Shown: positions 36,532 through 50,952 of the stretch, piece by piece
How positions within the stretch are numbered: position 1 is the stretch's first letter
How the letters are laid out: each line of letters starts with the position of its first letter
The notes under the pieces: model-generated
Databases searched by the model: none
The model's input: the letters and a program-made list of their open reading frames with translations, nothing else
Told to the model about the DNA's origin: nothing
From: Octopus vulgaris
Lineage: Eukaryota
DNA: 64,000 bases
Direction: 5' to 3'
Assembly: GCA_951406725.2 (NCBI GenBank)
Contig: OX597820.1
Location: 22,196,001 to 22,260,000, forward strand
Translations under genes and position numbers: made by a program

Positions 36532-37047
36532 TTAATCAACCATTTGGTTGCAGGCCTCTTCTAAATCATCACACATAGTTTTATATTTCGCCTGTTCATC
36601 TCCGAGTTCTTTTGTAAGTTTGTCGATATCATTCTCAAGTTTTTCGACATTTCGTTCAGCCTCTAACGCCCTGCTTTCAGCTGATTGAAGCTTTGTAGAA
36701 TCATCCTCGGCTTGTACTCTTTTCTCTTCTAATAAACCTTCTGATCGGGAAAGATCCGATTCTAAAAGATTGATTTTACGGTTTAGATCTTGGGTCTCGC
36801 TCTCCGTCTCGGACAGTTTCTCTTCTGTATATCGTAATAAGTCCTGTGTTTTCTCCAACTGACCAGTTAATTCATCAAAATCTCTTTCTAAATTTCCATG
36901 CTTCTTCTGAAGCCACGCCAGTTCGTCATCAACTTTCTTTTTCTCTTCTTCCAACTGTTGGTATTTGTTCGAAATGTCTTCAGCTTTTTCCAAAGCGTTT
37001 ACTCGCTCCAGAATCAAAGCATTCATTTTTTTCTTGCACGCTTCCAT
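36532..37047 (-). CDS. Tpm: Short, intronless tropomyosin-like protein (171 aa; about 4 actin-binding periods)
   Basis: Uninterrupted ORF. N-terminus MEACKKKMNAL..ERVNALEKAE resembles canonical MDAIKKKM..; internal LQKKHGNLERDFD and LNRKINLLESDLSRSE; C-terminus AESRALEAERNVEKLE..KYKTMCDDLEEACNQM resembles the tropomyosin C-end. Continuous heptad pattern with no Pro; AAAC-ATG start context. Confidence 0.9.
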   Translation of the reverse strand: MEACKKKMNALILERVNALEKAEDISNKYQQLEEEKKKVDDELAWLQKKHGNLERDFDELTGQLEKTQDLLRYTEEKLSETESETQDLNRKINLLESDLSRSEGLLEEKRVQAEDDSTKLQSAESRALEAERNVEKLENDIDKLTKELGDEQAKYKTMCDDLEEACNQMVD

Positions 37048-37297
37048 GTTTACTTATATATTCTAATATAAGAGCCACGCGTTAACTTTCAAATCTAAAG
37101 TTAAGATATTCCGGTAATATATTCCAAAATATATATATATGATTTATTAAGCACAGTCGAAGTGCTTCTTTGACTCCGAGGAGAACAACTTAATGAATCT
37201 GTAACAGAGCCAGAAGTGGTTGTAACTGCTTGATCAACTAACGTTAGCTACTTCTGTGTATCACTAACGTATGAGAGTTACCTACCTTGATTTATAC
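37048..37297 (-). promoter_or_regulatory. Conserved 5' UTR/core promoter of the 171-aa tropomyosin
   Basis: Blocks shared with 50953-51207 (plus-strand text): CACGCGT, GCTTCTyTGACTCCGwGGAGAA, AACAGAGCCArAAGTGGTTGTAACTG, ATCAACTAACG, GAGAGTTACCTACCTT. Inr-like GCAGTT on the sense strand near 37227. Confidence 0.55.
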
Positions 37298-37522
37298 AAA
37301 TTCATCAATGTCATGATGAAATATATGAATGAACTATGGCGAGATATTTTTCCAGGATTTTTATCGCTTTCTTTGACTTGTTTGTGATTTTCCCATTCTA
37401 TATCGCTTTATCTCTGTAAATAGTTGTCGACACTAATAGTAATCCACGCCATATATATGCGTCTATGTGTAAATGCACATATGTGTGTGTGTGTGTGTGT
37501 GCATTGTGCAGGTATATATTTT

Positions 37523-48900: not shown

Positions 48901-50322
48901 GTTGCTGCTGCAGCCGATATATACAATGTATAACCAAGATAAGCAATCCTTCAAACATCTTGTGTATTTTAAGTTGAGAAATGTTGGAATAAAGAGCTAA
49001 TAAAAACGTTTGTATGTTTGTTTGTTTTCAGAAATACATGCACATTGGCTTCCAGATAATTTTCTATTTTCTTGTTTTGTTTTTACCATAAAAATATAGA
49101 AAGAAAGTTAATACTGTCCAAAGTGAGTAGTCGTTTTATGTCAGAGCATAAGTTTACTCGGAATAAAATATTTTCGGAAGACATTTTGATGGCTGTTTCT
49201 CTGTTGATGTTCATTTTTTTAAAATCCAGTCGATATTTAATGTTTTAATGGGAAACAAATACGAGCTTTTTTTTCAAACAAGGAAGATTTATTGTTCACA
49301 GAATATGGCCATTGAAATTATTTCAGATTTGTTTGTAAAAAACATACGTAGCTACATACATAATTTCAAAAGATTAGTATACACGCATATATACGTGCAT
49401 ACATATGTTCATACATACATACATACATACATACATACATACATACATACATACATACATACATACATACATACATACGTACGTACGTACGTACGTACAT
49501 ACATACATATATACATACATGCATACATACATAGGTGTTAAATTACATACATAAATATATGCATACATATATACACATTCGTGCTTACATATGTTCATAC
49601 AAGCATACTGGTATGAGCATACAAACATATATGCATACACGCGTGTGCAATTATGTACATAAAACATACATACATACATACATACATACATACATACATA
49701 CATACATACATACACCTTCCTTTATGTATGTATGTATGTATGTATATATACATACATGCATGTATGCATATATGCATAGATACATGCATGTATGCATATA
49801 TACATACATGCATACATACGTATATGCAAACATAACCTTCCTGTGTTAAGTTTAACATAGTTATTTAACAATTAACAATAATTTAACAATTAACAAGCAA
49901 ACAAGTTGAGAACGATTTGGGTGGATAAAAGTTCAAAATATCAGCAAAAGCTTTCATAATTTAAAAGCAAATGAAAGAAATAATTAACTTAATTTTCATA
50001 TATTTTTTTAAAAATTAACCTACCACTAACAATAATAATAAAAGCTGCTTGAATTGTGTAGCGTAAGATTTGAGTGTCATAAGAAAATGTAATACGAACC
50101 AGTACAAGATACAATAATTGGGTATTAACACTGTCAAATAATGACAATGAGTAAATCGTAACATTTTTAAAGCAATTACTTAGATTTGTCTTTATGCATT
50201 ATTCTTGCGTGTTTTTCGTTTGTTTTTTTTTTCAGGGAGTGGGGGAAGATTGTTTTGTTTTTGTTTTTTGTTTTGATTTTTGTGGGGTGGTTAGATAAGC
50301 TCAGCTCTTAATCATAACTGTT

Positions 50323-50952
50323 CTAATCCATCATTTGGGAGCACGCTTCATCCAAATCTTCGCACAAAGTTTTGAATTTTTTCTGTTCTACTTCGAGCTC
50401 TTTCGTGAGCTTTTCGATATCATTCTCAAGTTTTTGGACATTTCGCTCAGCTGTCAATGCCCGATTCTCGGCAGACTGGAGCTTCTCGGAATCCTCTTCG
50501 GCTTGCACTCTTTTCTCTTCCACTTGACTTTCAGATCGGGTAAGATCTAATTCTAAAAGATTGATTTTTCGGTTTAAATCTTGTGTTTCGCTCTCTGTCT
50601 CCGATAATTTCTCTTCTGTATATCTCATCATGTCCTGTGCTTTATCTAATTGGACAGATACTTCATCAAATTCTCTTTGTAAATTACTATACTTCTTGTG
50701 CATCCACACCAATTCCTCATCAACTTTCTTTTTGTCTTCTTCCACCAGCTGGTATTTAGCTAAACTTTCGTTCAAATCATCGTTCTCTTTCTCCAGAGTT
50801 CCATACTTTTTCTGTAAAAACATATAATCGTCTTGAATTTTATCGCGTTCTTCTTCAACCTGCTTTAGCCTTAATTCCAGTTCCTCGGCTTTTTCCAGAG
50901 CATTTACCCGATCTGCGACTAAGGCATTCATTTTCTTCTTGCACGCTTCCAT
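50323..50952 (-). CDS. Tpm: Short, intronless tropomyosin-like protein (209 aa; about 5 actin-binding periods), paralogue with a 38-aa internal duplication
   Basis: Intact ORF, 82/105 identical to the 171-aa copy over the C-terminal part by manual alignment. A 25-aa identical run (RYTEEKLSETESETQDLNRKINLLE) is encoded with many synonymous differences. aa 29-66 and 67-104 are tandem 38-aa repeats. Confidence 0.9.
   Translation of the reverse strand: MEACKKKMNALVADRVNALEKAEELELRLKQVEEERDKIQDDYMFLQKKYGTLEKENDDLNESLAKYQLVEEDKKKVDEELVWMHKKYSNLQREFDEVSVQLDKAQDMMRYTEEKLSETESETQDLNRKINLLELDLTRSESQVEEKRVQAEEDSEKLQSAENRALTAERNVQKLENDIEKLTKELEVEQKKFKTLCEDLDEACSQMMD

Follow-up and report, generated by a model that had tools for sequence, protein, structure and literature searches.

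Tropomyosins of vertebrates cover six or seven actin subunits and those of yeasts four or five (PMC5404920). In Saccharomyces cerevisiae, Tpm1 (199 aa) and Tpm2 (161 aa) span five and four actins, respectively (PMC2120352), and relative to the 161-aa form Tpm1 is longer by one actin period owing to 38 residues inserted after codon 35 (PMC3805550, PMC12440208). Here we describe a window, a 64,000-nucleotide stretch of Octopus vulgaris DNA, that holds two mini-tropomyosin genes, designated A and B. This pair displays the same 38-residue step between paralogues at a similar position, and its members are 10 residues longer than yeast Tpm2 and Tpm1. Fungal tropomyosins, including the 161-aa Cdc8 of S. 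pombe, have a four-residue interruption of the heptad pattern, whereas the heptad of A is continuous; fungal-like rows need a 4-residue gap near positions 77-87 in alignments, and A shows no such gap. As the octopus sequences are of the animal type, their likeness to the yeast proteins is most likely a case of convergence.

With the canonical molluscan protein of 284 aa, the minis share the N- and C-terminal overlap ends, the heptad register, and periods 1-3 and 7; they differ from it in the loss of 112 internal residues, a C-terminus shorter by one, an intronless coding sequence, and a location on another contig (C7). The low-molecular-weight tropomyosins of animals (~245-248 aa, six periods), among which P0148-P0150 are 245-aa octopus isoforms, are also shorter than 284 residues by a whole period. 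In those forms the N-terminus is shortened by use of an alternative first exon, with periods 3-7 intact, whereas in the minis the N-terminus is still of the muscle type and the middle has been lost. Internal-deletion tropomyosins have also been engineered (Landis et al. 1999, J Biol Chem 274:31279; Hitchcock-DeGregori series). A mutant without regions 4-6 reportedly still bound actin but inhibited myosin cycling; A has nearly the same architecture as this mutant, except that the natural loss is of 112 residues rather than the whole 119 and has long been under selection. No description of short cephalopod or other short animal tropomyosins was found in the literature searched, which gave partial coverage; the available part of PMC4542287 held no passage on short holozoan forms, and three supplements of PMC9712504 yielded no match for tropomyosin. 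The sequences are filed in databases under generic names, and the length class is for that reason easily missed.

Two intact genes under selection

A and B are tandem minus-strand ORFs devoid of coding introns (Table 1), and their exact coordinates agree with the initial annotation, which had described two intact single-exon tropomyosin ORFs with both ends. In the profile check proposed there, both exceeded the curated PF00261 cut-off of 38.6 bits (A, 70.4; B, 67.6), and all matches (21/21) in a PDB sequence search at E<=0.01 were tropomyosins or tropomyosin-derived chains. At the sequence level both overlap ends are present, with alignments extending from canonical residue 1 to 283/284, and the C-terminal residues are strongly diverged from the canonical ones. 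Neither protein contains proline, and both differ from the canonical form also by a Trp at position 46 and by extra cysteines. One register runs through all of A, with a heptad a/d hydrophobicity of 0.78 (canonical, 0.82); in B the register changes by 3 near residues 57-64, and AlphaFold2, applied to the monomer only, predicts a single unbroken helix over residues 2-208 (pLDDT 95, pTM 0.40). Genome searches with P0001 and P0146 returned no mini loci beyond these two (count at least two), nor were extra copies found within 144 kb around them. PF00261 matches also occur on C17 and C26, below the cut-off and nearly all with stops.

Over 167 codons, A and B differ with pS 0.571 and pN 0.122, giving a dN/dS of 0.12 (bootstrap 0.07-0.20) at a dS of about 1.1 with both frames intact. 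Judged from their codons, the two genes are real and under purifying selection, and the synonymous-biased divergence reported earlier holds.

For transcription, sequencing runs were taken as RNA by guess, none being so recorded. In 4/4 such probable RNA runs (4 studies), the ORF of B lies in one collinear contig without a joint and with 0-2 differing letters, which argues for a single-exon B and against splicing into a longer protein, a possibility that the initial annotation had raised for checking. Around A, 0.85-0.95 of the word content is present in 14 probable RNA runs from 6 studies; four added rows (X21-X24) contain almost none of these words, which does not count as evidence. Contigs reach upstream of B as far as 51103, 51105, and 51135 in three runs and 50973 in the fourth. 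Position 51135 falls on the A of a TCAGTT word at 51137-51132, which we take to be an initiator-like motif; this is a weak hint of a transcription start there, contigs being unable to mark one. Contig cover was absent at 51150-51400 in 4/4 probable RNA runs, a count made without a DNA-run control. The upstream regions of A and B are homologous (73% identity over 323 nt, first codons included), and cover of the likely 3' UTR of B breaks in a T-rich repeat near 50203-50284. Downstream, 31689-32758 matches 46943-48150 and 35101-35285 matches 48827-49006; the former is partly low-complexity and may alternatively be a repeat. The surroundings of both genes are repeat-rich.

Table 1. Features of the mini-tropomyosin loci, in window coordinates.
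Feature	Position	Strand	Description
Gene A, CDS	36532..37047	-	171-aa mini-tropomyosin P0001; canonical ~1-118 fused in register to ~231-283
Gene B, CDS	50323..50952	-	209-aa mini-tropomyosin P0002; like A plus a 38-aa internal repeat
First repeat copy in B	50761..50874	-	Residues ~27-64; boundary slides from ~22 to 36; absent from A
Second repeat copy in B	50647..50760	-	Residues ~65-102; nearer to A in sequence
Deletion junction in A	36682..36732	-	Residues 106-122; break not placeable more closely
Equivalent junction in B	50473..50523	-	Residues 144-160
Likely unspliced 5' UTR of B	50953..51135	-	Contig ends and upstream homology to A
Likely promoter and 5' UTR of A	37048..37288	-	Homology to B at 50953-51196
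Likely 3' UTR of B	49850..50322	-	Contig cover to the end of the stretch compared; in one run, from 49961
Two downstream remnants of the tandem duplication	31689..35285	.	Matches downstream of B

The internal deletion and the 38-residue repeat

The 284-aa canonical tropomyosin used as reference was rebuilt from the same genome, where it is encoded by a 9-exon gene at G000:C4:106500474-106550018. A model of A with a single deletion relative to this protein scored best (339) when 112 residues were removed and the break followed residue 118; sizes of 111, 113, 114, and 119 scored 234, 225, 233, and 239. The 15 best break placements span residues 106 to 122, and one of them, after 122, falls where exon 8 begins. 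Identities between A and the canonical protein number 48/105 and 21/54, and residues 106-117 of A fit neither alignment diagonal (2/12 and 1/12). The proposed jump from residue 118 to ~231 thus stands, while the accompanying figure of ~113 missing residues divides into an internal gap of 112 and a 113th residue lost at the C-terminus, where A is one residue shorter; an internal deletion of 113 was itself rejected (225 vs 339). The missing residues amount to 16 heptads, so that register is kept, and correspond roughly to periods 4-6 of the seven-period muscle protein, including period 5, in agreement with the central loss described earlier. By the Phillips boundaries, periods 4-6 comprise 119 residues; with 112 lost rather than 119, A exceeds the length of four ideal periods by ~4 residues. 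Skipping of whole exons was rejected as an origin for the deletion: the exons of the canonical gene end at codons 38, 80, 124.67, 164, 187.67, 213, 234, and 257.33, and no in-frame pair of these ends differs by 112.

The extra 38 aa of B come from tandem repetition within the protein, whose comparison with itself is best at an offset of 38 aa. The repeat is also evident in the DNA at an offset of 114 nt (54/88 identical), and it moves the heptad register by 3. The second copy is identical to A at 23/38 positions and the first at 16/38. A tree of repeat units built for dating this duplication rejected none of four groupings (p-AU 0.25-0.43). With an assumed overlap of 10 residues, A and B measure 4.10 and 5.06 actin periods, matching the quantisation to about four and five periods that had been proposed; this corresponds to 40.2 and 39.8 residues per actin, as compared with 39.1 for the 284-aa protein. 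Two separate length changes, -112 and +38, each lie close to whole periods.

Relatives and origin of the family

Argonauta hians carries a 171-aa orthologue, identical in length to A and 85% identical in sequence, and marine fragments at 40-49% identity bear the same deletion junction and the same repeat. In one relative at 40% identity, both the 38-aa unit and the junction are kept, and 175 columns align without a gap. The O. bimaculoides gene model has 193 aa and a different N-terminus, and P0003 was the only full-length short relative among 123 matches from 1.84 billion cluster representatives searched. Given the Argonauta orthologue and the distant relatives, which share this junction and repeat, the family is old: the earlier description of fungal-sized animal tropomyosins stands, and 'lineage-specific' fails in the sense of a recent local oddity. 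Because the distant relatives carry both junction and repeat, the five-period form is probably the earlier one, the 209-aa protein being, on parsimony only, probably ancestral and the 171-aa protein derived.

A molluscan origin of the minis is favoured by sequence comparison. Over 158 columns their identity is highest to the canonical protein of the same genome (69), other full animal rows reaching 48-59 and two fungal-like rows 51-55; the labels 'fungal', 'vertebrate', 'insect', and, for P0012, 'mollusc' were inferred from sequence, and P0028 is filed under a plant. In the best mixture-model tree, built on a neutral alignment, five minis form one clade (100/98) that falls within the mollusc rows (63/95, unstarred) and outside the fungal-like pair (100/100). 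In a first tree, biased because fungal-like rows had been aligned onto A, those rows fell inside the minis. Columns 106-230 were excluded from all family trees. The introns of the parent after codons 38, 80, and 257 lie within the parts that the minis retain, yet the minis have none, and the loci differ (C7 for the minis, C4 for the parent); missing introns and a separate locus make the minis probably retrogene-like. We consider it quite probable that the molluscan 284-aa gene gave rise to an intronless copy, probably by retrocopying, and that this copy was stripped of most of periods 4-6 and acquired the 38-aa repeat. The repeat would have arisen in period 1-2 of this copy, and a tandem duplication of the mini gene would have preceded the Octopus/Argonauta split; that one copy subsequently lost a repeat unit is a fairly likely direction of change.

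Predicted actin binding, proposed function, and competing explanations

Residues kept in A, B, and the Argonauta protein include K5-K7, A18, A22, E23, K48, K49, D58, N89, and R90, and, in the C-terminal part, A235, R238, A239, A242, E243, R244, and K248. Period 1 has changed at K12 (to I/V) and E16 (to V). A ~19.6-residue acidic periodicity was not significant in A (best period 17.8, 219/1000 shuffles as high), in B (18.0, 121/1000), or in the Argonauta protein; the test is low in power, as the canonical control also fell short (19.6, 67/1000). Period 5 is one of two 'primary' actin-binding sites in vertebrate tropomyosin (PMC2710508), and its absence counts against binding. From sequence, the minis are nonetheless likely to bind actin, at 1:4 and 1:5.

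Several other explanations merit consideration. That the ORFs are processed pseudogenes, products of misassembly, or exons belonging to a longer spliced protein is largely refuted: the want of coding introns, the repeat-rich setting, and the other N-terminus in the O. bimaculoides model would fit, but they face the low dN/dS at high dS with intact frames, the unchanged length in Argonauta, the joint-free contigs over B, and a 112-codon loss that skipping whole canonical exons cannot produce. It is unlikely, though worth weighing, that the genes are real and their products no longer coat actin alone, having been repurposed as coils that terminate or poison cables or scaffold another partner. 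The lost period 5, the substitutions at 12 and 16, the non-significant acidic periodicity in its low-power test, the ~4 surplus residues of A, and a 44% identity to the parent with a long stem branch all point that way. On the other side stand the retention of both ends and of period-7 surface residues and the gapless repeat unit and junction in a relative of 40% identity, a conservation that a tie of length to the actin repeat would predict and that is otherwise hard to account for.

The minis might instead be a retained short lineage that predates the 284-aa bilaterian form, with the function proposed below, which we regard as improbable. Fungal-like proteins aligned onto the canonical protein show a 119-residue gap at nearly the same place, a position of the minis at the base of the animal rows was not rejected (p-AU 0.058; 0.30 on a flawed alignment), fungal clusters rank first for both proteins in the ESM Atlas, and octopod minis hold 8/34 fungal-diagnostic alongside 8/22 mollusc-diagnostic residues. 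Distant minis, however, have only 1/34 of the fungal ones; the best tree, which nests the minis among mollusc rows, the closest identity, the want of a fungal-type four-residue gap in A, and the absence of a coding-sequence intron argue further against such antiquity, and a single full-length short relative would require many losses. Bearing on the troponin independence proposed earlier, the tail of vertebrate troponin T binds the C-terminal overlap region of tropomyosin, which the minis keep, though diverged, and the troponin core contacts the central region, about residues 150-190. Very improbable in our judgment is a muscle thin-filament role, with troponin engaged via the C-terminal overlap in a shorter regulatory unit of specialised cephalopod muscle. 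In its favour, the minis retain periods 1, 3, and 7 along with the overlap ends, an important part in the activation of vertebrate fibres belongs to period 3 (PMC2814127), and octopus cells express troponin T (PMC9712504); but the troponin-core contact region is gone, the final residues are strongly diverged, and myosin-linked activation is held to involve the missing periods 4 and 5 (PMC2814127).

The account that we prefer as a whole, and hold to be somewhat likely, is that the minis are deletion-derived animal tropomyosins that form cables on non-sarcomeric actin, the two proteins spanning four and five subunits. Such cables would stabilise a subset of non-sarcomeric filaments against severing and would gate other actin-binding proteins, as do yeast Tpm1 and Tpm2. 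There is perhaps an even chance that, without periods 4-5, they relay no cooperative activation driven by myosin II or troponin, so that their filaments tend to a myosin-II-poor state. More tentatively, and with a little less than even confidence, cephalopods and perhaps more molluscs may have independently re-evolved the yeast design, a four- and five-actin pair that arose when periods 4-6 were cut out of the muscle gene and one 38-residue period was put in at nearly the position seen in yeast Tpm1. The cables of this pair would bind actin despite the loss of period 5 and would stand apart from troponin and from activation by myosin II. If so, these proteins would mark a class of animal actin filament undescribed in the literature searched.

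Lengths of four and five actin subunits have so far been described for yeasts, and an animal pair of this size under purifying selection breaks the split between vertebrate six or seven and yeast four or five drawn in PMC5404920. The minis represent a selected counterpart, found in nature, of internal-deletion mutants made in the laboratory, and would serve as a natural test of the role of the middle section. They allow a direct test of whether binding to actin requires period 5 or shape and length alone, and of which periods carry myosin and troponin regulation. That a 38-residue, register-shifting insertion near residue 30-35 arose in both the yeast and the octopus lineage suggests a narrow structural route to an extra actin period.

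Two intact short tropomyosin genes

The two open reading frames (ORFs) that the initial annotation had proposed were found on the minus strand as intact genes (see table), and both products score above the Pfam tropomyosin cut-off (PF00261). Each of the 21 sequences that A matched in the PDB is a tropomyosin or a chain derived from one. Searches of the octopus genome with A, and again with the distantly related fragment P0146, returned A and B alone, and this count of two loci is a lower bound.

Coding sequences and neighbouring features, in window positions
Feature	Positions	Strand	Remark
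Gene A CDS (P0001), 171 aa	36532-37047	-	Intact ORF
Gene B CDS (P0002), 209 aa	50323-50952	-	Intact ORF
Fragment lying between A and B	43632-44513	-	Presumed non-LTR retrotransposon reverse transcriptase, by its motifs
Near-identical copy of that fragment	61455-62216	+	As for its copy
Frame of 174 aa	4397-4921	-	Presumed Helitron/PIF1 helicase fragment

The synonymous bias that had been read in the divergence of A from B is borne out: across 167 codons pS is 0.571 and pN 0.122, with a dN/dS of 0.12 (bootstrap 0.07–0.20) at a dS of about 1.1. Upstream sequences are 73% identical across 323 nt; downstream, too, traces of the tandem duplication can be followed. Sampled words around A are present at 0.85–0.95 in 14 small contig sets from six studies, sets guessed to be RNA with no run recorded as such. 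In all four of these sets that were compared with B, from four studies, one contig spans the entire ORF with zero gaps, zero joints, and 0–2 differing letters, and transcription of B without splicing inside the ORF is therefore likely; the same conclusion for A is less directly supported. Upstream of B, contigs end at 51103, 51105, and 51135 in three sets, the last being the A of a TCAGTT word, a weak hint that transcription of B starts there.

Internal deletion and a 38-residue step

A family search placed an ordinary multi-exon tropomyosin gene on contig C4, and its canonical 284-aa product was rebuilt from nine exons, every splice donor being GT and every acceptor AG. Relative to this parent, residues 1–105 of A align at offset 0 (48/105 identical) and residues 118–171 at offset 112 (21/54), and a single-deletion scan is optimal at 112 residues with a break after 118 (score 339), the 15 best placements in A spanning 106 to 122. 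Deletions of 111, 113, 114, or 119 residues scored only 225–239. The large internal gap and break after 118 described in the initial annotation stand, but its size of ~113 aa resolves into a gap of 112 plus a C-terminus one residue shorter than canonical. Because 112 amounts to 16 heptads, A keeps its heptad register, with an a/d hydrophobicity of 0.78 in a single register and zero proline. What remains is periods 1 and 2, most of period 3, the final one or two heptads of period 6, and period 7, with boundaries taken in part from PMC2814127. Whole-exon skipping was rejected as the source of the deletion, since no exon combination amounts to 112 codons. Parent introns after codons 38, 80, and 257 map to retained sequence and are missing from both A and B, which fits descent from a retrocopy that would afterwards have lost its middle.

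B corresponds to A with 38 residues added: self-similarity within B peaks at an offset of 38 aa, the DNA repeats at 114 nt (54/88 identical), and the insertion point slides from about residue 22 to 36. Thirty-eight exceeds five heptads by three residues, and B moves its hydrophobic register by three near residues 57–64. AlphaFold2 models B as a single continuous helix and is silent on dimers and actin. At an assumed 10-residue overlap, the proteins measure 4.10 (A) and 5.06 (B) periods, in agreement with the earlier estimate of about 4 and 5. The budding yeast pair displays the same 38-residue step as B versus A: in the 199-aa yeast protein, an insertion of 38 residues following codon 35 lengthens it by one actin period (PMC3805550; PMC12440208), and the two yeast tropomyosins cover five and four actins (PMC2120352).

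The canonical gene (L032-L034, G000:C4:106533900-106546700) carries four tandem copies of exon 4 and divergent additional copies of exons 5, 6, and 8, several of them cysteine-rich and some employed by the annotated 245-aa isoforms P0148-P0150; its variable exons 4–6 span much of the region deleted in the short proteins, or minis. Elsewhere, a cluster of weak PF00261 matches (L008-L028, G000:C17:1846525-1889947), nearly all with stops, is probably a tandem repeat translating as coiled coil.

Relatives and origin of the minis

Argonauta hians has a 171-aa protein with 85% identity to A and both ends present. The O. bimaculoides model P0004 (193 aa) matches from residue 33 onward and differs at its N-terminus, which we take for a gene-model error; its first ~55 residues are unlike A yet hold a short segment similar to B's first repeat, which hints at a model fusing parts of both tandem genes, or at a gap in the assembly. 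Among 123 matches from a profile search across 1.84 billion representatives were one full-length short relative, P0003, and one fragment, P0005; the others of the 31 listed were tropomyosins of ordinary, partial, or fungal-like type. P0146 (180 aa) and P0147 (91 aa) came from a further profile search. The three fragments, two from a marine catalogue and one from run assemblies, align to B without gaps: P0146, at 40% identity, has both repeat copies and the junction where the canonical middle is deleted, P0005 both copies and the beginning of the junction, and P0147 the junction. Our guess is that they come from squid or another mollusc. Abalones possess a second, divergent 284-aa 'tropomyosin-like' protein (P0008, P0127), and other molluscan paralogues may merit a length survey. 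P0028, filed under chicory, has a fungal-type tropomyosin as its C-terminal part, which probably reflects contamination of the chicory assembly.

All five minis tested group in a single clade (support 100/98). As A and B (74% identical) are closer to each other than either is to P0146, and P0146 carries the repeat, parsimony would make the five-period form ancestral and A the product of a later loss; a repeat-unit tree gave no confirmation of this order. A caveat is that the yeast pair is a case of such an insertion arising independently.

Whether the minis derive from a molluscan gene by deletion or from an ancient short lineage was weighed on several grounds. Over 158 columns, the identity of A is 69 to the octopus canonical protein, 48–59 to other full animal rows, and 51–55 to fungal-like rows. 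A tree from a neutral alignment under a mixture model nests the minis among the mollusc rows at 63/95 (unstarred), with a basal position not quite rejected (p-AU 0.058). Against that placement, the first tree had fungal-like rows inside the minis, from an alignment in which those rows had been set onto A. Also against it, fungal clusters rank first for both A and B in the ESM Atlas, and octopod minis share 8/34 fungal-diagnostic alongside 8/22 mollusc-diagnostic residues, though the distant minis have only 1/34 of the fungal-diagnostic ones. Fungal-like proteins show a 119-residue gap against the 284-aa protein at nearly the deletion site of A. On this sequence evidence, we consider it fairly probable that the minis arose by deletion from the molluscan gene and converged on the fungal layout.

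Predicted actin binding and a candidate function

Tropomyosins form parallel dimers whose ends overlap head to tail along the actin filament. In the minis the basic N-terminus is retained, as are the alanine positions of periods 1 and 7 and many residues at the surface. They begin with Met-Glu, a common start for N-acetylation; A is predicted to bind actin at 1:4 and B at 1:5. An engineered mutant without regions 4–6 (Landis 1999) reportedly bound actin and inhibited myosin cycling. Period 5 is absent from the minis, positions 12 and 16 are changed, and acidic periodicity is not significant, in a test which the canonical protein, used as control, did not pass either, so that actin binding is not secure. 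Vertebrate tropomyosin has two primary binding sites, of which period 5 is one (PMC2710508), and a part in myosin-linked activation has been ascribed to periods 4 and 5 (PMC2814127). A, B, and the Argonauta protein share Cys4 at a core d position and Cys159 and Cys166 at e positions (numbered as in A); Cys159 recurs in P0146 and P0147. Such cysteines may serve interchain disulphides or redox control.

Vertebrate tropomyosins cover six or seven actins and yeast tropomyosins four or five, according to PMC5404920. A literature search, which reached few subscription papers or key evolutionary surveys, found no description of four- or five-period animal tropomyosins; mini proteins are already in public databases under generic names. 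We regard the pair as a genuinely new length class within a known family. Since the overlap region is retained, the troponin independence suggested in the initial annotation stays at the level of the plausible. The reading to which we commit is that the minis would form a cable that stabilises non-sarcomeric actin and acts as its gate-keeper, relaying neither troponin nor myosin-II activation.
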